From: Arcobacteraceae bacterium
GTDB taxonomy: Bacteria > Campylobacterota > Campylobacteria > Campylobacterales > Arcobacteraceae
Reading direction: 5' to 3'
DNA: 64,000 nucleotides
NCBI GenBank assembly: GCA_963662945.1
Contig: OY759974.1
Coordinates: 1,568,001 to 1,632,000 of the forward strand
The notes beneath the pieces were generated by a model, which saw only the letters and a program-made list of their open reading frames with translations, made no database searches and was not told where the DNA came from. Positions 53,850 to 64,000 of this stretch are shown here, piece after piece; position 1 is the stretch's first letter; the number at the start of each line of letters is the position of its first letter. The translations under genes and the position numbers were made by a program.

Positions 53850-55196
53850 CTATCTTTCATGTAATGATCCTTCTTTTATTTTTATTATTGGTTTTAAAAA
53901 GTAATCCATGATTGTTTTTTTGCCAGTTATAATATCTACACTGGCTACCATTCCTGGAATAATTGGAAGTTTCTCACCATTTCTTTCAAGATAATTTTTA
54001 TCTGTTTTTATGGTAACTTGGTAATAACTTTTATCATCTTTACTATCTTTATCTTTTATACTATCAGCAGATATTTCAATAATTTTCCCTTCTAATCCAC
54101 CATAAATTGAAAAATCATAAGCTGTTATTTTAACTAATGCTTTTTGTGCAGGTGAAATAAAGGCAATATCTTTTGGATCTATTTTTGCTTCTACTAATAA
54201 TATATCACTATCAGGTACGATTTCTATTAAGTCAACTCCTGATTTTACAACACCACCAATAGTATTGATATTTATTTGTTTAATAATTCCATTTACAGGA
54301 GAACGTATAATTGTTTTTTCTAATTTATCTGTTTCAGATATTAATCTTGCATCGATTTTATTTAATTCAGAGGTTACTTCTTGTAATTCTTTATAACTAT
54401 TAGATTTAAAACCTTTTACTTTTTCAAGAATTTTATTTTCAGCTTCAGAGATAGCAAGTTTTGATCTAGGAAGAGAAAGAAGTGCAGAATTTAAATCTCC
54501 ATCCAATGTGTTATATTCTTTTTGTAGATTTAAAAGTTCTATTTTTGACTTTGAACCTGATTTTACCATTCGTTCTATAGTTTGTAATTGTTGTAAAACA
54601 AGGGTTACACTTTTTTTTAGCTGTTCTATTTTCGATTCAATCTCTTTTTTTTCTTGAACTTTTTGTTCAAATTGTAATTCTAAAATTCGTAAAGAACTTT
54701 TATACTCATCTATATTGTTATTATAAATTTGGATTTCAATATTTGTATATTTTTTAAGATTTTTTACTTCTGTAGGAAAGTTAATTTCTCCTTTTGGTTT
54801 TGAGGGATTATATTGTAGTTGTGCATCTAATCTAGCTTTTTTCGCTAATAATGCAATATTTTGTTCTTTTGCTTCTTCCAAAGAAGCTTGAAATCTTGTT
54901 GTATCTATTTTCATTAAAGCTTGATCTTTAACTACATGTTCACCACTTTTTACAAGTATTTCTGACACTAAACCACCATCTAAGTTTTGAACTTTTTGAA
55001 TTTTATTTGAAGGGATAACTTTACCATCACCTCTTGCCATTTCATCAATTTGTGCTATCATAGCCCAAATAATGAGTCCAAGTACTATAGTAATTACACT
55101 TGCAAATAAAAAATCTATTTTAAATTTTGGTTTATCATATGCATGACCATATAAAGAGTTTACAAAACTTATATCATCTTCATTAATTTTAGTCAT
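53850..55196 (-). CDS. HlyD-family T1SS periplasmic adaptor (LapC-like)
   Basis: TM, G.VIPS..Q.VQ.LDGG, IRSPVNG, AYDFSIYG, PGM; start reassigned to ATG 55196. Confidence 0.93.
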   Translation of the reverse strand: MTKINEDDISFVNSLYGHAYDKPKFKIDFLFASVITIVLGLIIWAMIAQIDEMARGDGKVIPSNKIQKVQNLDGGLVSEILVKSGEHVVKDQALMKIDTTRFQASLEEAKEQNIALLAKKARLDAQLQYNPSKPKGEINFPTEVKNLKKYTNIEIQIYNNNIDEYKSSLRILELQFEQKVQEKKEIESKIEQLKKSVTLVLQQLQTIERMVKSGSKSKIELLNLQKEYNTLDGDLNSALLSLPRSKLAISEAENKILEKVKGFKSNSYKELQEVTSELNKIDARLISETDKLEKTIIRSPVNGIIKQININTIGGVVKSGVDLIEIVPDSDILLVEAKIDPKDIAFISPAQKALVKITAYDFSIYGGLEGKIIEISADSIKDKDSKDDKSYYQVTIKTDKNYLERNGEKLPIIPGMVASVDIITGKKTIMDYFLKPIIKIKEGSLHER

Positions 55197-57327
55197 TTTT
55201 TTCACCTTTTGATTGTAAAACTTTATCTTTAGGTCCATCAGCTACTATTTTTCCATGATCAAGCACAATAATTCTATCGACAAGTGGTAAAATAGACATT
55301 TTATGAGTTATGATAATAACTGTTTTATCTTGAATAAGCGCATGGATTCTTTTAATAAAATCATTTTCTGTTTGTTTATCCATAGAATTAGTAGGTTCAT
55401 CAAATATCATAATATTGGGATTTGTAATGATTGCACGAGCAAGTGTTACAGCTTGTCTTTCCCCTCCACTTAATCCTTCTCCTCTTTCTCCTACAAGTAA
55501 ATCATAACCAGCTTCATGTTTTCCTAAAAACTCATGCACACCTGCTGCAATCGAAGCTTCAAGAACTTCTTCATCCGTTGCATATTGTTCACCTATGGTA
55601 ATATTGTCTTTTATACTTCCCATAAATAAAAAAGGTTCTTGTGGTACACAGCCTATAGATTGTCTTAAATCAACAGGATCAATTTGTCTTATATCTGTTT
55701 GGTCTATAAGAATTGAACCATGAGTTGGACCATATAAATTCATTAGAAGTTTTGCTAAAGTTGATTTCCCAGACCCAATTCTCCCTAAAATAGCTACTTT
55801 TTCACCTTTTTTAATTGTTAGATTAATATTTTTTAAAGTCTCAAAATTTTGTCCTTTATATGCAAAAGTTACATCTTTAAATTCAATACTACCATTAAGA
55901 TTTGGACGGCTAATATAATTTTTATTATTATGTTCAACTTCCATCTTCATAAGCTCTTCAATGTTATTCATAGAAATAATAGTTTGATCATAACGTATAA
56001 TCATACCTACTATCTGTGAAATAGGAGCAACTACACGACCATTTAACATCATAGCTGCAATAATACCACCCATACTCATATCGCCTTCAAGTGATAAATA
56101 AACACCAGCAACAATAATAGCTATGTTTGATAGTTTTGAAATAAGTCCAGTTGTAAGTGTTGTAAATTGCGAAAGCATTTGTGATTTTTCACCATAATAA
56201 AGTGTTTGATTTAAAGATGCATCCCAATGGGTTTTCATTCTATTTTGAGCTCGAATACTTTTTATAATTTCTAAACCAGCAACGGTTTCATTTAAAGTAG
56301 TTTGTTTTAATTGCTCCTCTTTTGACGATTTTTCTACAACAGCTTTAATTCTATCTTTCATAATCCAAGAGAATGATAAAACTATTACAATTGTAGCAAC
56401 ACTAATCCAACCTAATAATCCTGCAAAGTAAAATATTACACCTATAAATAATAGCGTAAAAGGGATATCAACTAAAGTTGCAATTGTAGCACTTGTAAAA
56501 AAATCTCTAACACTTTGAAAAGATTGTAGTCTACTTACAAATTGTCCTGTAGAATTTGGTTTTTCACTAAGACGTATGTTTAACAACTGATCAAATATTT
56601 TATTACTCATAATTAAATCAGCTTTTTTACCAGCTTTTCCAAGATAGTAAGCTCTTAAAAGTGAAAAAATAAGATCAAAAATCATAATAAAAACTATTCC
56701 AAAAGTCATTGCTAGTAAAGTTTCTAAAGCATTATTTGGTAAAACTCGATCAAAAACATTTTTCATAAAAAGTGGCATTGCTAAAACAAAAAGATTTATA
56801 AATATAGCAGCAACAATCACTTTTTTATAAATTGGTAAATTTGATTTTAAAGCACCCCAAAACCAGTCTTTTGGTTTTGGAATTACAATTTCATTTGATA
56901 CTTTATTATCAAATTTATAAGTTGGTTTTATTATAATTACTTGTTGTTTGAACTCTTCTTCCAAGGACTCAAGTGACATTGTTGTTGCACCTTCACTAAG
57001 ACCTGGGATAATTACTGTTGCTTCATTTTTATTAAAGTCTATATTCAGTAATACACATGCTCGTTCTTTTTCAAGTATTAATACAGCAGGAAGCGCTAGT
57101 TTTGATATACCTCTAAGCTCTCTTTCAACAATTTTTGAAATAAGTCCTATTCTTTTTGATGAAATTAAAAAATCTTTAATAGACATTGATTTATTGTGGA
57201 TAGGCAGTCCTGCTACTAATGATTCTTTTGAAGTATTTCTTTGGTAATAAGTTGCGATAAAAGAAAGACACTCTAGTAGAGAATCTACTGTTCTTCTCTC
57301 TTTCATTACATCATTTTTAATACTCAT
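55189..57327 (-). CDS. T1SS ABC transporter with C39-like domain (LapB-like)
   Basis: ESLVAGLP N-terminal domain, FDRVLPN, GRIGSGKST, LSGGERQ, DEPT. Confidence 0.94.
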   Translation of the reverse strand: MSIKNDVMKERRTVDSLLECLSFIATYYQRNTSKESLVAGLPIHNKSMSIKDFLISSKRIGLISKIVERELRGISKLALPAVLILEKERACVLLNIDFNKNEATVIIPGLSEGATTMSLESLEEEFKQQVIIIKPTYKFDNKVSNEIVIPKPKDWFWGALKSNLPIYKKVIVAAIFINLFVLAMPLFMKNVFDRVLPNNALETLLAMTFGIVFIMIFDLIFSLLRAYYLGKAGKKADLIMSNKIFDQLLNIRLSEKPNSTGQFVSRLQSFQSVRDFFTSATIATLVDIPFTLLFIGVIFYFAGLLGWISVATIVIVLSFSWIMKDRIKAVVEKSSKEEQLKQTTLNETVAGLEIIKSIRAQNRMKTHWDASLNQTLYYGEKSQMLSQFTTLTTGLISKLSNIAIIVAGVYLSLEGDMSMGGIIAAMMLNGRVVAPISQIVGMIIRYDQTIISMNNIEELMKMEVEHNNKNYISRPNLNGSIEFKDVTFAYKGQNFETLKNINLTIKKGEKVAILGRIGSGKSTLAKLLMNLYGPTHGSILIDQTDIRQIDPVDLRQSIGCVPQEPFLFMGSIKDNITIGEQYATDEEVLEASIAAGVHEFLGKHEAGYDLLVGERGEGLSGGERQAVTLARAIITNPNIMIFDEPTNSMDKQTENDFIKRIHALIQDKTVIIITHKMSILPLVDRIIVLDHGKIVADGPKDKVLQSKGEKND

Positions 57328-57353: not shown

Positions 57354-58916
57354 TTAATTTTCTTTATTGATATTTTTCATATCAATCTCATTAAGCTCTA
57401 GCGAAGAGTCTTTTATTTTTTCATCATTATACAAACTATCGAGTCTCGTATTTACGTCTATACTTTCAGTTTCATTAGAAGTTTCTTGATTTTGAGAATC
57501 TTCTTTTTTATCTGTCTTTTCATCAAACATATTAAGTAAATCTTCACTTAAAGCATCATTTGTAGATTCTATTTTTGGATTACTATCTCTTGCTACAAAT
57601 GTATATTTACTACAGCTTTGTTTTTCTTGCATTAATATAACATCACTTAACATTGACATATTAAATAATAAATTATAATATGCAGATATATAGTCAAATT
57701 CTTGTTGAATTTTATCTATATTTGATCTATAAAATTCAGATTCTGCATTTAAAATATCAATAAAAGTTCGAGTTCCATCTGCAAGTTGTTTTTTGTACAC
57801 TGTAAGTATATTAAAATTATCCTCAACATACATACTTATATTTTTAATTCTTTTTTGAAGATTATAAAATGTATTATATGCTTCTTTAATTTCATCTATA
57901 ACTTCATTGGTAATATTGTCAAGCTTTTTTTGTTCTTCTTGTAAGAATAGTTTTTCTTTTTGTGTTGCATAGTATGTCTTTCCACCATTAAAAAGATTCC
58001 AACTTAAATAAAGTCTTGCACTATGGATATCTTGTCTTCCGTTTTCCTCTAATTCTAAATCGTTATCAAATAAACTTTGAAATTGTAGTTTTAATGTAGG
58101 TTTATATCCTGCTTTTTCTTGAACAATTTTTTCTCTTTGTTCATTAGTTTTTTCAATTTGTTCTTGAACTTTATAACTTCTTCTGAGTCCAACTTTAATC
58201 GCTTCTTCTAAACTTGGTGGTAAAAAACTTTCATTTACATTTGGTCTACAAATATCTCCTTCCAAATCTTTGCCTGTAAGCTTTTTATATAAACTTAAAG
58301 CTTTCTTTTGCTCATTTTCTTGTTCTAAGAATCTATCTAAAACTGAATGGTATTTAGAGTTGACTTGGTGTGTTTCTAAGACTTCACCACTTATTTGCTC
58401 TTTTTCTTTTGCAATTGTTAAATAGTTTTCATGAATTTTTATATTATGCTGCGAGAGTGCTACTAATTCTTGTCTACTTGCTAAGTCAAGATATGCATTT
58501 ACAGTATCTAAAATAGTATTTTCTACAGTATATAAGCTTCTATATTTATTTGAATTATATTTATGTCGAAACTCTTGGGCTTCACTAGGGGTTCTTCCTC
58601 CATCATATAAAATATGCTCTAATTTGATGACAGCATTCCATCCATTTTTTTTAATCCAACCTTCTGCTGGTGGAGGAGTGTCTGGTCTATTTTCAGTTTT
58701 AGATTTTTCTAAATAAGCATCTAGATTTAGTGTAGGAAGATAATCAGCTTCTTCTTGATAAATATACATCTCATAAGCATTTCTATTTAAATGTTCTGCA
58801 ATAATTGAAGGATTATTATTTAGGGTGTCTTCGATACTATTTCGTAAGCTTGTTGCATTCATATTAAGAGAACAAACAATTCCAAACATGATATAATATT
58901 TTAATTTTTTCAACAT
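57354..58916 (-). CDS. TolC-family outer membrane protein (LapE-like)
   Basis: Signal peptide after AAGG SD (ATG 58916), YLPTL, LYDGG, WNLFNGG, G.RT..D.LNAE. Confidence 0.92.
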   Translation of the reverse strand: MLKKLKYYIMFGIVCSLNMNATSLRNSIEDTLNNNPSIIAEHLNRNAYEMYIYQEEADYLPTLNLDAYLEKSKTENRPDTPPPAEGWIKKNGWNAVIKLEHILYDGGRTPSEAQEFRHKYNSNKYRSLYTVENTILDTVNAYLDLASRQELVALSQHNIKIHENYLTIAKEKEQISGEVLETHQVNSKYHSVLDRFLEQENEQKKALSLYKKLTGKDLEGDICRPNVNESFLPPSLEEAIKVGLRRSYKVQEQIEKTNEQREKIVQEKAGYKPTLKLQFQSLFDNDLELEENGRQDIHSARLYLSWNLFNGGKTYYATQKEKLFLQEEQKKLDNITNEVIDEIKEAYNTFYNLQKRIKNISMYVEDNFNILTVYKKQLADGTRTFIDILNAESEFYRSNIDKIQQEFDYISAYYNLLFNMSMLSDVILMQEKQSCSKYTFVARDSNPKIESTNDALSEDLLNMFDEKTDKKEDSQNQETSNETESIDVNTRLDSLYNDEKIKDSSLELNEIDMKNINKEN

Positions 58917-59038
58917 GATTACCTTTATAAAAATATTTTCATACATTATATTCTAAAAAAGTTGCTAAAAGGTTCTAGTTTATAATTTTTTTTATGATTT
59001 ATTGATTTAATAAGTTATTTTTGGTTAAAATCATTTTT

Positions 59039-59719
59039 ATGATTAAAATAATTAAGAATCTTACTATCCTTTATGTGGAAGATGATAGTGTAACTAGGGA
59101 GTTTATTACCAAGTCATTACATCTTATGTGTGATAATGTCATTGCTACGGATACTATAGAAAAAGCAAAAATTATTTATAATAATCATGATATAAATATT
59201 TTAATTAGTGATATCAGTATTGGGAAGCATAGTGGCATAGAGTTTATTAAAGAAATACGAAAAAATAATAAACAAATTCCTATTATACTTTTATCTGCCC
59301 ATTCAGACAAAAATTTTTTATTTGAAGCAATTAAGTTAAACTTGATAGATTATTTGGTGAAACCAATTAATTATGAAACTCTTAAAAATTCGTTAAAATC
59401 ATCAGTGCAATATTTGATTGATAATGGATATTTAGAAGTAGAATTTATTAATGGAATAAAATATAGTTTACAACAAAAGGTGGCTTTTAAAAATAAAGAT
59501 ATTATACAATTTACAGCTACAGAATTAAAACTCTTGACTCTTTTTTTGAATAATAAAAATAATATTTTAAGTTCTGATGAAATTATTTATCATGTATGGG
59601 AAAATGATTTTGCTACAACAGGTGCTTTAAAAAGTTTAATTAATAAAGTAAGAAAAAAAATTGGAAAAGAGAGTATTAAAAATCATTCTAAACTTGGATA
59701 TCAATTAGTATTAAAATGA
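59039..59719 (+). CDS. OmpR/PhoB-family response regulator
   Basis: ILYVEDD, ISDI, YLVKP, winged helix ending in GY; start reassigned to ATG 59039. Confidence 0.9.
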   Translation: MIKIIKNLTILYVEDDSVTREFITKSLHLMCDNVIATDTIEKAKIIYNNHDINILISDISIGKHSGIEFIKEIRKNNKQIPIILLSAHSDKNFLFEAIKLNLIDYLVKPINYETLKNSLKSSVQYLIDNGYLEVEFINGIKYSLQQKVAFKNKDIIQFTATELKLLTLFLNNKNNILSSDEIIYHVWENDFATTGALKSLINKVRKKIGKESIKNHSKLGYQLVLK

Positions 59720-59728
59720 AGCTAATAA

Positions 59729-61927
59729 TTATCTACTAGCTCCGTAAAGTCCTATATCTTTTACAATTTTAAAATCATCATCATCTTTTACATTTTCTGC
59801 AAATACTTTAATAGTAAGGAGTGTTGAAAGTTCTTGCATTGCTTCTACAAAACCTTTTTTACTAGAATCTTTACAAATACCATCAGTATAATCTCTTGCA
59901 AGTCTTATATAATCTAAATTAAAATCTTTGATAGTATCAAGTGGGATGAATTTTGTTTCAAATCTTTTAATAATAATTTTTGCACCAGCACTATGAATAG
60001 ATTCGATAAAATATTTAAATTTTTCTATATCTTTAGCCGCACCATAAGCAGTTACACTAAAAACAAGTTGCGAAGCTATGTCACTATTTTCTAATATCAG
60101 AGTTTTAAGCCAATTTTTGAATTTTATATCAAAAACTGAGTCTAAAGCTAAGTTAATTGAAATACTATGTTGTACATTTAATTCTCTAATATGTTTGATA
60201 ACTTTTTTAACTACAGCTTTATCAAAATCTAATATTTTCTCATATTTTTCCGCAATTGAAATAAATGTTCCAATTGGTATAAGTTCATTATATTTATCTT
60301 TTGCTTGAGTAAAAGCTTCTTCCATTACAATAAGGTTTTGTTCTTTCATATCTAAACAAAATGCTTGTCCAATATAACTAATATCGAATTTTTGATTATC
60401 TATGATGTCAAAAACTAAATCTCTCCATTCATTCATATCTCTTGCAAGATCATTATCATCTCGAATAAAAGCTTCATTTTGTCCAATAAGTTTTGCTTTT
60501 TCATATGCTTCATAAGCACTAGCAATAATACCAGAAGTGGTACCAATAGGATTAAATGGAGTTCCTCCTATGTGTGCTATATCATTGATTCCAAACTCTA
60601 ACGCAAATTGTGTTAACTCTTTTTTGAGTTTTTCTATGATTGTTGTACATTCTTCAAGTTGTAAGTTTTTTGCAATCATTGCAAACTCTGAACCAAAAAA
60701 TCTGTATGCAGTTACATTTGGAGATAAGTTTTTTAAGATATTTGCAAAAGAGATTAAAAATTTATCCACTTCTTTATTTGTATGATTTTTTGCATAAGAA
60801 CCTAAGTCATCAATTCTAATGACGAAAATATATCCAGTCTCTTTAGATATAAACATTTTTTTCATATCAGTTTCAAATGTTTGTTTTAAACTCAAACCTG
60901 TTAAATCATCCAAAGAGAGTTTGTTTGTCATAGATTCTAAATTTGCATTAAGTTTTTTGATAACTCCTTCAATTTTGCCAGACATATCATTCATTGCTAT
61001 TGAAACATTTTTTAATTCTGTTGTCCAAGGTAAATGTTGAATAATTGTAAATTTTCCTTTAGAAATTGATTGTGCTAAACTTTCTATATTTTTTAGAGGC
61101 TTAAGAATAAATCTTAAAAATATAATAAGAAGAATCATAGAAAGAGTAAATGCTATAATTGCATAAAGAATAGCTCCTTTGGCCTGTTCATATAGTTTTG
61201 CGTAAGCATCACCAGCATTTGCACTTACATATATAATAGCTGTAGTATTCCAACCATCACTAATTTCACTTTTCATTTCAGACATTTTAAGAGGGATTAA
61301 ATCAATAAACCATTGTGGAATATAATCAAATTTTTCAGCTCTAGAAACTTGTACAAGAATTTTTGAGATATTTAGAGTTGCGGTGGCATCTACAGTTTTA
61401 CTACCTTTTGTAGCTTGAAATTGAATTTTTATATTATTCCCATCGATAAAATTTTGATTTGGTTGAAAACTATATGTTATTTTTTTATTTTCTTTTTGCT
61501 CTATATTTTCATTTTCTAAGAGTGCTAATTGGTTTGTAATATCATCATCACTACTATTTTTTTCAATTTTACCAATAGTACTATCAACATGAACATTAGA
61601 AATTTCCCAGTTTTGATTATCTTGAAGATTACTATTTGCAATTAAATCTTTATCTGTAAAATTTTGATTTATATTTTCTAATCTAATCTCTTTATAAAAA
61701 CCTCTATTAGCAATAGCATTCACAATTGATTTTATTTCTGGATTTTGTTTATTTGACATAAATGATTTAAGGCTCATACCTAAGCTCGTAGCAGTATCTT
61801 GAGCTTTTGTTGTTGATTCTATCTCTAAATACTCTTTTGTATTGTTGACACTTATTAAAAAGTTACCTGTAAAGATTATAAAAAATATGAAAGATATTAT
61901 TATATAGAGTTGTTTAGATAGTGACAT
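59729..61927 (-). CDS. lapD: LapD-like c-di-GMP receptor (periplasmic domain, HAMP, degenerate GGDEF and EAL)
   Basis: MSL.KQL, AQDTATSLG, P.WF, GW loop, P...EL..V..AMN.M HAMP, FGSEF and EAF degenerate motifs; next to lapG. Confidence 0.88.
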   Translation of the reverse strand: MSLSKQLYIIISFIFFIIFTGNFLISVNNTKEYLEIESTTKAQDTATSLGMSLKSFMSNKQNPEIKSIVNAIANRGFYKEIRLENINQNFTDKDLIANSNLQDNQNWEISNVHVDSTIGKIEKNSSDDDITNQLALLENENIEQKENKKITYSFQPNQNFIDGNNIKIQFQATKGSKTVDATATLNISKILVQVSRAEKFDYIPQWFIDLIPLKMSEMKSEISDGWNTTAIIYVSANAGDAYAKLYEQAKGAILYAIIAFTLSMILLIIFLRFILKPLKNIESLAQSISKGKFTIIQHLPWTTELKNVSIAMNDMSGKIEGVIKKLNANLESMTNKLSLDDLTGLSLKQTFETDMKKMFISKETGYIFVIRIDDLGSYAKNHTNKEVDKFLISFANILKNLSPNVTAYRFFGSEFAMIAKNLQLEECTTIIEKLKKELTQFALEFGINDIAHIGGTPFNPIGTTSGIIASAYEAYEKAKLIGQNEAFIRDDNDLARDMNEWRDLVFDIIDNQKFDISYIGQAFCLDMKEQNLIVMEEAFTQAKDKYNELIPIGTFISIAEKYEKILDFDKAVVKKVIKHIRELNVQHSISINLALDSVFDIKFKNWLKTLILENSDIASQLVFSVTAYGAAKDIEKFKYFIESIHSAGAKIIIKRFETKFIPLDTIKDFNLDYIRLARDYTDGICKDSSKKGFVEAMQELSTLLTIKVFAENVKDDDDFKIVKDIGLYGASR

Positions 61928-61960: not shown

Positions 61961-62608
61961 TTATATTTTCTCCATTAAAGATTTCCAGTTTTTAAGATTA
62001 TTATCTCCAGCACGTTCTTCCGTTTTTCCTTTGTTTTGTGCTTTCCATAATCCAGCAGCATTAAAACTATAAATAGGTTTTAAATCTGTTCTCGCTGTTG
62101 CTAATTTTAATTTTTTATTGATATTATCTAATACAATGGGAGGTTTTCCCTCTTTATGATAATAGTTAAGTACCATATGCGCTTCTTCAAATTTGGTATT
62201 ACTTCTTTTAAGTGTAACATAAGTGATTTTTAATTTTTCATCAGGGATACCCAATGTTCTTAGTGCAAAATATTTAGCAATAGCATAATCTTCACAATCT
62301 CCCGCACCAGTCCCTAAAAATTCAAATGGAGAAGCCCAATAGTCATTTTGTTTCCAATGCACACTGTCTCGTTTGTAAGTAATTTTATTAAAAAAATCAT
62401 TGACTATTTTGAGTTTTTCTAATGTATTTTTATCTTTTGCACTTTGGAGCATTTGATCCCATAACAAAACTCTTTGTTTTGCTTTTGAACCATATTTTTT
62501 TTCTATTTTGATTAATTGTTCTATAGATACATATACAGGCATACTAGCAAGCAATATCGTAAAAAGTATTGAGAGAGAAAAAAGAGCGCTTGCAAAAATT
62601 TTAAACAT
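61961..62608 (-). CDS. lapG: LapG-like periplasmic transglutaminase-like cysteine protease
   Basis: DYWASP.E, GDCEDYAIAK, AHMVL, LDN catalytic triad. Confidence 0.92.
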   Translation of the reverse strand: MFKIFASALFSLSILFTILLASMPVYVSIEQLIKIEKKYGSKAKQRVLLWDQMLQSAKDKNTLEKLKIVNDFFNKITYKRDSVHWKQNDYWASPFEFLGTGAGDCEDYAIAKYFALRTLGIPDEKLKITYVTLKRSNTKFEEAHMVLNYYHKEGKPPIVLDNINKKLKLATARTDLKPIYSFNAAGLWKAQNKGKTEERAGDNNLKNWKSLMEKI

Positions 62609-62720
62609 ATATACTTCCTATAAATATCTTTCCATTGTAACGAAAAACTTTTAAAAATAAGATAATATTTTTTATGATTTTAACAACCTTTTTGAAACTA
62701 TTTTATTGTACAATTATTTT

Positions 62721-63425
62721 ATGAAGAATGAAAACTCAAGTTTAAAATTATTAAAAACAAAGTCGATACTGTATATAGAAGATGAAGATAATATACGAAA
62801 AGATTTAACAAAGACATTAGAATTAATGTGTCAAGAAGTTTTTTCATTTTCAAATGCGGAAGATGCTCTTATGTTTTTCCCCCACACTAGACCAGATATA
62901 ATATTAAGTGATATTAGTTTGGCAGATATGAATGGAATTGAATTTACTAAAAAAATCAGACAGGTAGATAAAAAAATTCCTATAATTCTTTTATCTGCTC
63001 ATACAGATACTCGTTATTTATTGGAAGCAGCAAAATTAAAACTTGTGGAATATCTCACAAAACCTATCACCTACCAAGAATTAGAAAATTCACTTTTTTT
63101 AGCATTGAAAGAGATGCAATCTTATGAAAAAAGATTTGTTCATTTAAGTGATACAATTAGATATGATACATTTCATAAAATTTTATATGAAAATAAAAAT
63201 ATAAAAAAACTTTCAGCAAGTGAAACAAATCTTTTGGATTTTTTTATTAAAAATCAAAATAGGACACTATATACACAAGAGATTAAAAATTATATCTGGG
63301 AAGATTCATATGATGCTACAGATACAGCATTAAAATCTCTTATGCATAAATTACGAAATAAAATAGGGAAAGACTCTATTAAAAATGTCTCAGGAATAGG
63401 GTATTATATAATTACGTTAGATTAA
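62721..63425 (+). CDS. OmpR/PhoB-family response regulator
   Basis: ILYIEDE, LSDI, YLTKP, KNVSGIGY; start reassigned to ATG 62721. Confidence 0.9.
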   Translation: MKNENSSLKLLKTKSILYIEDEDNIRKDLTKTLELMCQEVFSFSNAEDALMFFPHTRPDIILSDISLADMNGIEFTKKIRQVDKKIPIILLSAHTDTRYLLEAAKLKLVEYLTKPITYQELENSLFLALKEMQSYEKRFVHLSDTIRYDTFHKILYENKNIKKLSASETNLLDFFIKNQNRTLYTQEIKNYIWEDSYDATDTALKSLMHKLRNKIGKDSIKNVSGIGYYIITLD

Positions 63426-63427
63426 AA

Positions 63428-64000
63428 TTATAATATTGGAATAGTTATAAAAAACTTTGCTCCATTTTTTTCATTTGAAGCAGTAAGTGTTCCATTCATA
63501 TTATTTTCTACAATGAGTTTCGACATAAAAAGTCCAATTCCGCTACCATCTTTTTTTTCAAATGTCATAAAAGGTTTAAAAATATCATCCATATATTTTT
63601 CACTTATTCCACCACCATTATCTAAAATTTCAGTAATGCATTTACCATTTACTTCATAGACTTTTACCTCTATAAGACCATCTTGTATGTTTCTTTGGAT
63701 TAGTACATCTTTTGCATTGGAAATTATATTAATAAGAACTTGTGAGTATTCATTTTGATAACCATAAATTGTAGGATTGTTTTTGAGAATAATATTGATT
63801 TTAATATTTTTATTATCTAGTGTACTACTGAGTATATTAACTGTTCTTTTTATTTGTTCAGATATTTTAAATTTTGTTTTTTCTTTATTTGTTGCAAAAA
63901 AATTTCTAAAATCTTCAATAGTATTTGACATATATTTTAATATATGATTTGATCTATCAATCATCTCTAAAATTTCATCATTTGAAATATTTTCTTTGAT
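63428..64000 (-). CDS. Sensor histidine kinase, C-terminal part (runs off the window)
   Basis: YMSNTIEDFR, N-box, DNGGG, GSGIGL; frame is open to the window edge. Confidence 0.9.
   Translation of the reverse strand: MKENISNDEILEMIDRSNHILKYMSNTIEDFRNFFATNKEKTKFKISEQIKRTVNILSSTLDNKNIKINIILKNNPTIYGYQNEYSQVLINIISNAKDVLIQRNIQDGLIEVKVYEVNGKCITEILDNGGGISEKYMDDIFKPFMTFEKKDGSGIGLFMSKLIVENNMNGTLTASNEKNGAKFFITIPIL

Follow-up and report, generated by a model that had tools for sequence, protein, structure and literature searches.

The window analyzed here is a 64,000-nucleotide stretch of the genome of an Arcobacteraceae bacterium (GenBank assembly GCA_963662945.1, contig OY759974.1, positions 1,568,001 to 1,632,000 of the forward strand), and it carries a gene for a 732-residue orthologue of the receptor LapD (Table 1). 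LapD is the textbook case of inside-out signaling by cyclic diguanosine monophosphate (c-di-GMP), and to our knowledge, earlier work has regarded its periplasmic output domain as a compact PAS-like module, with the protease LapG as the sole known partner. In the window's LapD, this domain is opened by an insert of about 101 residues that is very probably a diverged repeat unit of the giant-adhesin type nested in the receptor. The protein otherwise follows the order of the structurally solved LapD of Pseudomonas fluorescens and its Legionella orthologue [Protein Data Bank (PDB) entries 3pjv, 3pjw, 4u64, and 4u65]: a first transmembrane segment, the periplasmic LapD_MoxY_N domain (here split by the insert), a second transmembrane segment, and degenerate GGDEF and EAL domains. 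Pfam matched LapD_MoxY_N in two stretches (E 7e-28; 97.4 bits against a cut-off of 25), GGDEF at E 1.3e-9, and EAL at E 5.9e-31, and the translation has hydrophobic segments at residues 7-27 and about 253-275. The cytoplasmic part resembles that of P. fluorescens LapD (3pjw, E 2e-23); this alignment has FGSEF and EAF where the GGDEF and EAL motifs would stand, the metal-binding stretches are degenerate as they are in P. fluorescens, and the protein appears to be a catalytically inactive receptor rather than an enzyme.

The tryptophan (Trp) loop and the PxWF segment of the solved proteins are both kept. G225-W226 is invariant in 31 of 31 aligned sequences, and GW is kept in 27 of the 29 insert-bearing alignment rows. 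Two features set the window's protein apart from the P. fluorescens and Legionella proteins in addition to the insert: its loop reads GWNT instead of GWxQ, with T in place of Q at the fourth position (none of the Campylobacterota or Methylobacter rows aligned has Q there), and Pfam found no HAMP domain in it at E ≤ 0.01. HAMP was present in 3 of 11 insert-bearing relatives scanned. The protein is a LapD orthologue on the grounds of its architecture, core fold, Trp loop, and gene context.

Three alignments locate the insert. The LapD_MoxY_N match is interrupted, with residues 23-89 covering positions 1-67 of the 124-position profile and the rest falling in the second stretch. Against the output domain of the Legionella orthologue (4u64), phmmer paired residues 23-87 with chain residues 2-66 and residues 191-249 with chain residues 70-128, and about 103 residues of the window's LapD thus replace a three-residue turn between two strands; the Ig-like (immunoglobulin-like) domain sits in the β1-β2 hairpin, where the solved proteins have only this turn. 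BLASTP against LapD proteins of Methylobacter, which are 45-46% identical outside the insert, placed residues 1-87 and 189-732 next to each other on the subject (residue 95, then 97). All three agree with a sequence-only reading of this DNA, which had noted about 100 extra residues inside the periplasmic domain of a 732-residue protein, and they show that the region cannot be aligned to canonical LapD without a gap. The strings it quoted are present in the translation (GFYKEIRL at residues 76-83, PQWF at 204-207, and GW at 225-226), and the GW it reported as retained lies where it said. It had placed the insert at 61361-61672 (residues 86-189); this location stands, and the exact edges shift to residues 88-188 (61364-61666).

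To establish how widespread the insert is, we searched with LapD residues 1-270 (word-indexed search) and obtained 717 proteins at E ≤ 1e-3. Among the matches listed (the best 120 of the 717), most are 713-747 residues long, with four shorter ones (413, 437, 659, and 727 residues), and the named sources are Arcobacter, Aliarcobacter, Malaciobacter, Poseidonibacter, and related labels. In 80 related loci taken from species-representative genomes, 76 carry 99-108 extra residues, in frame, at the same hairpin, which rules against chance or artifact; the other four, three from Methylobacter (L074, L075, and L077) and one from Methylomarinum (L079), lack the insert cleanly. Across 301 sampled genomes of the phylum, LapD_MoxY_N was matched in 96, mostly unbroken (profile positions 2-124) and in frames of 628-687 residues; a split match within a frame of 734-747 residues occurred in only seven genomes, all of the window's own family. 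The insert profile matched 14 of the 301 genomes, and 11 of 15 genomes of the family, the window's own genome not counted. Within Arcobacteraceae, the LapG-linked LapD lineage has conserved the insert, which is no private oddity.

For 49 proteins, a quick maximum-likelihood tree was inferred after removal of the insert columns; L096 (wrong open reading frame) and L079 (cut by a contig end) were left out. All 29 insert-bearing orthologues fell on one side of a branch with a Shimodaira-Hasegawa-like approximate likelihood-ratio support of 97. The three Methylobacter proteins were sister to this clade (96), followed by two long-branched paralogues, and this whole group was split from 15 insert-less Campylobacterota proteins (100). 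A single origin of the insert is compatible with this tree, which fits either loss in Methylobacter after transfer between phyla or a separate gain in the paralogues and cannot decide between the two. The LapDs of Methylobacter, a gammaproteobacterial methanotroph, thus branch with those of Arcobacteraceae and apart from the other LapD-like proteins of Campylobacterota, a placement that suggests transfer between phyla.

We then asked what the insert is related to. Searched alone, the window's insert had one Pfam match, to Cadherin_5 (PF17892), at E 0.005 and 16.9-17 bits and in its second half only, where profile positions 49-97 match residues 138-187 of LapD. Across the 76 inserts, Cadherin_5 was matched by 45 at E ≤ 1 and by 21 at E ≤ 1e-3 (best 6.4e-7) and is the only family that recurs, any other at E ≤ 1e-3 being matched by a single member. 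A profile of the 76 inserts gave 214 matches at E ≤ 1e-3 among 1.84 billion representative proteins (HMMER), headed by giant proteins; the top one, P0121, has 3903 residues and 34 matched stretches (E 4e-137). All eight top matches scanned are arrays of 13-32 Cadherin_5, Cadherin_4, or Big_9 units, five of them with RTX repeats, and all 11 single-stretch matches scanned are LapD-like proteins with LapD_MoxY_N. P0121 has a repeat period of 98 residues, and each repeat contains profile positions 2-38 and then, within three residues, positions 67-107; in none of 19 giant proteins did one matched stretch span both halves of the profile.

Profile-profile comparison by hhalign tied the two together. 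The insert aligned with 67 adhesin units at 98.4% probability (E 8.9e-15, 80 columns), a value that is partly circular because the units had been cut with the insert profile, and with eight units delimited by Pfam at 98.1% (E 1.4e-13, 77 columns); insert position 2 corresponds to unit position 20. With four Pfam-found Cadherin_5 units from adhesins of the window's own genome, the probability was 64.6% (E 6.3e-5, 43 columns). Over the 77-80 homologous columns, insert and units share the pattern F.(I/F)....L(I/L)..S...... (I/V)S.V.VD...G.I in the first half and Y.F.P.......I.F.A......A.L.(I/V) in the second, along with a predicted β-sandwich. The insert differs from the units in lacking their first ∼19 positions, in having 26 extra residues (a helix and an acidic linker), in the loss of most of their acidic motifs, and in its setting, being a single copy nested in an inner-membrane receptor, whereas the units form tandem arrays in secreted proteins. 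It is homologous to Cadherin_5-type repeats but is not filed as a member, because it is below the cut-off, N-terminally incomplete, interrupted, single, and outside a secreted array. The adhesin-type cadherin-like/Ig pattern proposed by the sequence-only reading is thus upheld by the recurrence of Cadherin_5, the giant-protein matches, and the hhalign probabilities of 98%, and less so by the window's own copy, which reaches 17 bits against a gathering cut-off of 26.5. The further proposal that the receptor had captured an adhesin repeat found no sign of a source in its own genome. Capture from the genome's own adhesins was tried as a candidate and rejected: among 6836 six-frame open reading frames, the insert profile finds LapD alone (E 1.4e-34; next 0.18), and the cognate adhesin consists chiefly of LapA domains.

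To examine the fold, we modeled the periplasmic domain with AlphaFold2 from the 80-sequence alignment (model residue n is residue n+23 of the protein). The model has a mean predicted local distance difference test (pLDDT) score of 86.2 and a predicted template-modeling score of 0.73. Its core consists of helices 2-33 and 40-50 and strand 55-62 (β1) before the insert and of strand 167-172 (β2), helix 182-187, strands 194-200 and 205-213, and helix 216-228 after it, and it matches 4u64 with a template-modeling score of 0.82 on the target (E 5.6e-6). The insert is predicted to form six strands (65-68, 85-91, 96-101, 128-133, 142-151, and 154-163) and two helices (69-74 and 105-114). A β-sandwich is thus predicted in place of disorder, with strand pLDDT of 82-91; the stretch 101-130 alone drops to block values of 61-67. 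Modeled by itself, the insert gave the same elements (pLDDT 75.9). Since just two to three residues separate β1 from the first insert strand and β2 from the last one, these insert strands are almost continuous with the core in the model, and the insert should move with it. Its structural neighbors by VIA-align are Ig-like, with Z scores of 4.2-6.0: a PorM domain [Z 6.0, root-mean-square deviation (rmsd) 2.7, 65 aligned], a protocadherin extracellular cadherin domain (Z 4.9), pilus chaperones, filamin, and an adhesin split domain (Z 4.2). The last, adjacent to the peptide-binding domain of Vibrio cholerae FrhA (PDB 9y9w), resembles the insert in being a β-rich domain in another domain's loop; its match (rmsd 3.6, 76 aligned) is weak, on a par with those of many unrelated Ig-like domains, and its host is an adhesin, whereas the host here is a signaling receptor. 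The insert profile had no significant match among sequences of solved structures (best E 1.3), and an ESM Atlas search with residues 86-192 gave no usable match. The fold evidence from the model agrees with the sequence evidence but is not self-standing.

The gene neighborhood is that of a complete Lap-type adhesin-release system, with the window's LapD as its predicted receptor. As in the P. fluorescens and Legionella systems, lapG, type I secretion system (T1SS) genes, and a LapA-type adhesin with a TAAG motif lie close by; the LapB-, LapC-, and LapE-like genes are downstream of lapD. In LapG, the Cys of GDCEDY and the His of AHMVL are invariant and the Asp of LDN is kept in at least 90% of 78 sequences. 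Directly upstream of lapD in 75 of the 80 loci, lapG lies downstream in the three Methylobacter loci and was unseen in two where the gene touches a contig edge. A second lapG paralogue (48-52% identical) sits just upstream of lapG-lapD in L038, L040, L062, and L017. The adhesin contains 16 LapA domains along with a VWA domain and carries TAAG at about residues 149-152; Cadherin_5 was matched in it once by Pfam and twice in a whole-genome scan of its frame. The targeting-helix/cleavage region was recovered from 27 of 30 family loci, with the consensus IIDDFGSL.E.L(D/E) followed by AAAA or TAAG, and in most relatives within the family, the cleavage motif after this conserved helix is AAAA rather than TAAG. 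Two genes for OmpR-type response regulators flank lapG-lapD on the opposite strand [59021..59719 (+) and 62706..63425 (+)], and between the second of these and the adhesin gene is a short open reading frame with a histidine-kinase ATPase domain only [63428..64000 (-); a 271-residue frame in the genome].

Table 1. Features of the lapD locus, with window coordinates unless stated otherwise (aa, amino acid residues)
Feature	Coordinates	Strand	Basis
lapD orthologue, 732 aa	59729..61927	(-)	Open reading frame and Pfam
Output domain, N-terminal part, aa 23-87: α1, α2, β1 (holds GFYKEIRL)	61667..61861	(-)	Aligns with 4u64 residues 2-66
Nested cadherin-like (Cadherin_5/Big_9-type) insert, aa 88-188, ∼101 residues	61364..61666	(-)	Gap against 4u64 and Methylobacter; hhalign; AlphaFold2
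Insert N-half, aa 88-124, similar to adhesin repeat positions 20-56	61556..61666	(-)	Profile positions 2-38 match each 98-aa P0121 repeat
Insert-specific helix and acidic variable linker, aa 125-150	61478..61555	(-)	26-residue gap in hhalign alignments
Insert C-half, aa 151-188, similar to last ∼40 repeat positions (Y.F.P ... F.A ... L.I)	61364..61477	(-)	Profile positions 67-107 match P0121 repeats
Output domain, C-terminal part, aa 189-252: β2, PQWF, α3, β3, GW loop, β4, α4	61172..61363	(-)	Aligns with 4u64 residues 70-128
PQWF, aa 204-207, the PxWF segment	61307..61318	(-)	P204, W206, and F207 invariant in 31-sequence alignment
G225-W226, predicted LapG-anchoring Trp loop	61250..61255	(-)	Translation; role of Trp from available parts of Navarro 2011 and Chatterjee 2014
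lapG orthologue, 215 aa, bacterial transglutaminase-like cysteine protease (BTLCP)	61961..62608	(-)	Pfam Peptidase_C93, 3.4e-15
TolC-like outer membrane factor (LapE-like)	57354..58946	(-)	Pfam OEP, 2.3e-32
T1SS ATP-binding cassette (ABC) transporter with N-terminal C39-like domain (LapB-like)	55189..57327	(-)	Pfam ABC_tran, ABC_membrane, Peptidase_C39
Membrane fusion protein (LapC-like)	53850..55238	(-)	Pfam HlyD_3, 4.8e-20
LapA-type adhesin, 4562 aa	G000:C1:1632262-1645968 (= L106 263..13948)	(-)	Pfam; ends 262 bp beyond the window end

The position of the insert relative to the LapG-binding site can be approached from published work on LapD, which we cite from the available portions of each paper. 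In P. fluorescens LapD, the PxWF segment is probably in contact with the inner membrane, and W125 is the output domain's most distal point (Navarro 2011). The parallel unswapped dimer is the relevant form, and LapG docks laterally on its distal part, bridging both protomers (Chatterjee 2014). A domain-swapped, V-shaped dimer, probably an artifact according to the same study, was dropped as a reference. In the window's LapD, PQWF follows β2 by about ten residues, so β2 would run from the insert toward the membrane, and the β1-β2 turn would lie distally, next to the GW loop between β3 and β4. The insert, therefore, likely projects from the membrane-distal tip beside the predicted LapG-anchoring Trp, and since LapG bridges the protomers, the two inserts of a dimer would flank its landing place.

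Our best explanation overall, which we favor slightly, is a nested adhesin-type domain that serves as an accessory LapG-docking or gating module; the docking or gating role taken by itself is tentative and somewhat doubtful. An Ig-like insert rigidly attached beside the Trp loop would move with the c-di-GMP-driven change in the output domain. It could enlarge or restrict the LapG-binding site and thereby adjust how tightly or how specifically LapG is captured when c-di-GMP turns the receptor on.

Selection on the insert bears on whether it has a specific task at all. In comparisons with the four closest relatives, the insert had a ratio of nonsynonymous to synonymous substitution rates (dN/dS) of 0.29-0.40, against 0.07-0.10 in the remaining periplasmic domain and 0.07-0.11 in the cytoplasmic part; these ratios are rough because dS (∼0.8-1.3) is near saturation. 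The insert is under purifying selection, weaker than that on the core. Near-invariant residues in its N-half are W107 (72/76) and G119 (75/76), and Y152 (71/76), P156 (65/76), and F170 (69/76) are kept in its C-half; the addition that has no counterpart in adhesin repeats contains L134 (75/76), L137 (73/76), E138 (66/76), and N139 (57/76), and further conserved acidic positions are D115 (63/76) and E122 (54/76). Such a pattern could in part be that of a structural decoration or spacer, a nested domain that lengthens or stabilizes the output domain, for example for a longer reach into the periplasm, while carrying no signal and making no specific contact. The weaker constraint relative to the rest of LapD is in keeping with this, as is the finding that the majority of the conserved insert positions are hydrophobic, core-like, and in an alternating strand pattern; moreover, insert-less LapDs, including the closest ones from Methylobacter, keep GW and an adjacent lapG, which makes the insert dispensable for the basic switch. 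However, the insert is kept in 76 of 76 clade members with its length held to 99-108 residues, the helix ending in L-E-N that is foreign to adhesin repeats is among its best conserved parts, and folding alone hardly accounts for the conserved polar residues D115, E122, E138, N139, and K189. We, therefore, regard a pure spacer as unlikely.

The same acidic residues raise the question of calcium, which the sequence-only reading had proposed as one possible input through the insert, next to an adhesin or a partner protein. Adhesin units contain VNDGP, DNGDG, and D.DGD stretches, which we take to be Ca2+ ligands. In the insert, the N-terminal ∼19 residues of the unit, including the VNDGP stretch, are missing; the helix and linker replace the DNGDG stretch; and of the positions aligned with D.DGD, two have Asp in 38 of 76 inserts each, the window's protein reading L-Q-D-N-Q with one Asp. 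Judged from the alignments, the canonical acidic motifs of the repeat appear mostly lost. This speaks against a role as a Ca2+ sensor, in which the insert would bind calcium as adhesin repeats do and make LapG capture calcium-dependent. Its descent from a Ca2+-binding repeat family, the conservation of D115, E122, E138, and N139 together with an acidic linker, and the calcium dependence of LapG-type proteases (PMC13090378, PMC4359373) are points for such a sensor, which we nevertheless consider highly improbable.

Relatives of altered form show where else the insert occurs. Orphan proteins of 284-286 residues consist of a transmembrane segment, an output-like domain with the insert, and a second transmembrane segment, with no cytoplasmic domains and no GW. 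They were found in four of six genomes of one genus [L087 3816..4670 (-), which is G009:C1, about 585315-586169; and G033, G092, and G246]. At the one orphan locus examined, L087, the gene lies between genes for a major facilitator superfamily-type transporter and a PAS-PAS chemoreceptor-like protein, with no lapG nearby. Two LapD-like paralogues [L088 2026..4206 (+), 726 residues; L089 1302..3458 (-), 718 residues] have a similar insert that lacks the helix and linker (83-91 residues at the site); GW is absent from them, and both are encoded directly downstream of a TolC-like protein of 637-797 residues with a long C-terminal extension. In one insert-bearing orthologue (L054), the GW loop reads DDDR, so that the Trp is lost although lapG is adjacent; this is the most divergent periplasmic row (36% identity). 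A further protein of 1439 residues (P0256) has an insert-bearing LapD-like part fused to DUF6272 and additional EAL stretches.

Ig-like and cadherin-like domains are common protein-binding modules, and the insert might accordingly bind a partner other than LapG: the adhesin's periplasmic retention module, a T1SS component, the cell wall, or a neighboring LapD dimer in a homophilic, lattice-forming manner. The similar insert of the Trp-less orphans and of the paralogues beside a TolC-like protein would fit such a module. Adhesin repeats, however, are extracellular, so repeat-to-repeat contact in the periplasm would be unlikely, and the insert profile finds nothing else in its own genome. On balance, a partner of this kind is distinctly unlikely.

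A stronger version of LapG docking would be a two-point lock, in which the Trp loop is joined by the insert helix (L..EL..LEN) acting as a noncleavable pseudosubstrate of LapG. A study in Desulfovibrio describes the adhesin targeting helix as docking on the LapG β-sheet and targeting helices as poorly conserved in sequence (available text of PMC13090378). In a two-point lock, the insert helix would dock on the β-sheet surface that receives the adhesin's helix, and c-di-GMP would set both the location of LapG and the block of its substrate groove. We consider this version quite improbable. Comparison by hhalign of the insert helix with the family's targeting helices gave no support for sequence mimicry and speaks neither for nor against the lock, with a score of 7.5 over one column against ≤7.0 in 40 column shuffles.

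Several findings weigh against the accessory LapG-docking or gating module. The placement beside the Trp loop is a topological inference. On the fold, matches are only middling, the top Z score of 6.0 lying in the common range of VIA-align, and Foldseek found no match of the insert model in the PDB at E ≤ 1e-3. On homology, the window's own insert stays below the Cadherin_5 gathering cut-off, and the Cadherin_5 units of the own-genome adhesins align to its C-half only. Relative to the core, the insert evolves about four times faster, with dN/dS of 0.41-0.89 for its N-half in the four closest pairs, a speed as compatible with a surface domain under loose constraint as with a co-evolving interface. 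Finally, the persistence of the insert in proteins without the LapG-anchoring Trp or a nearby lapG weakens the case, as the insert does not have to exert its effect via LapG.

Among published departures from the canonical output domain, the nearest that we found is DvhD of Desulfovibrio vulgaris, a c-di-GMP-dependent inner-membrane regulator of a LapG-type protease (Nat Commun 2026; available text of PMC13090378). What the two systems share is that their periplasmic modules deviate from the canonical LapD output domain. DvhD, however, swaps the whole module for dCache and has a cytoplasmic PAS/HD-GYP part, whereas the window's LapD keeps the module and its Trp loop and adds a domain. We found no published account of an insert-bearing LapD in the literature on LapD with Arcobacter, Campylobacterota, or cadherin-like domains, with supplements outside the scope of this search.

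A whole family, including sewage, marine, and animal-associated relatives of Arcobacter, thus appears to have built an adhesin-type fold into the LapG-capturing tip of its receptor. The insert-bearing LapD is a natural experiment that shows how a well-studied switch can be elaborated, and it comes with its own comparators: the insert-less Methylobacter proteins, in which the hairpin is closed; the helix-less paralogues; and the orphans without the Trp or the cytoplasmic part. If the insert contacts LapG, a second contact would have to be added to the structural model of LapG sequestration, and the periplasm could be where specificity is set between LapD/LapG pairs that share a cell.

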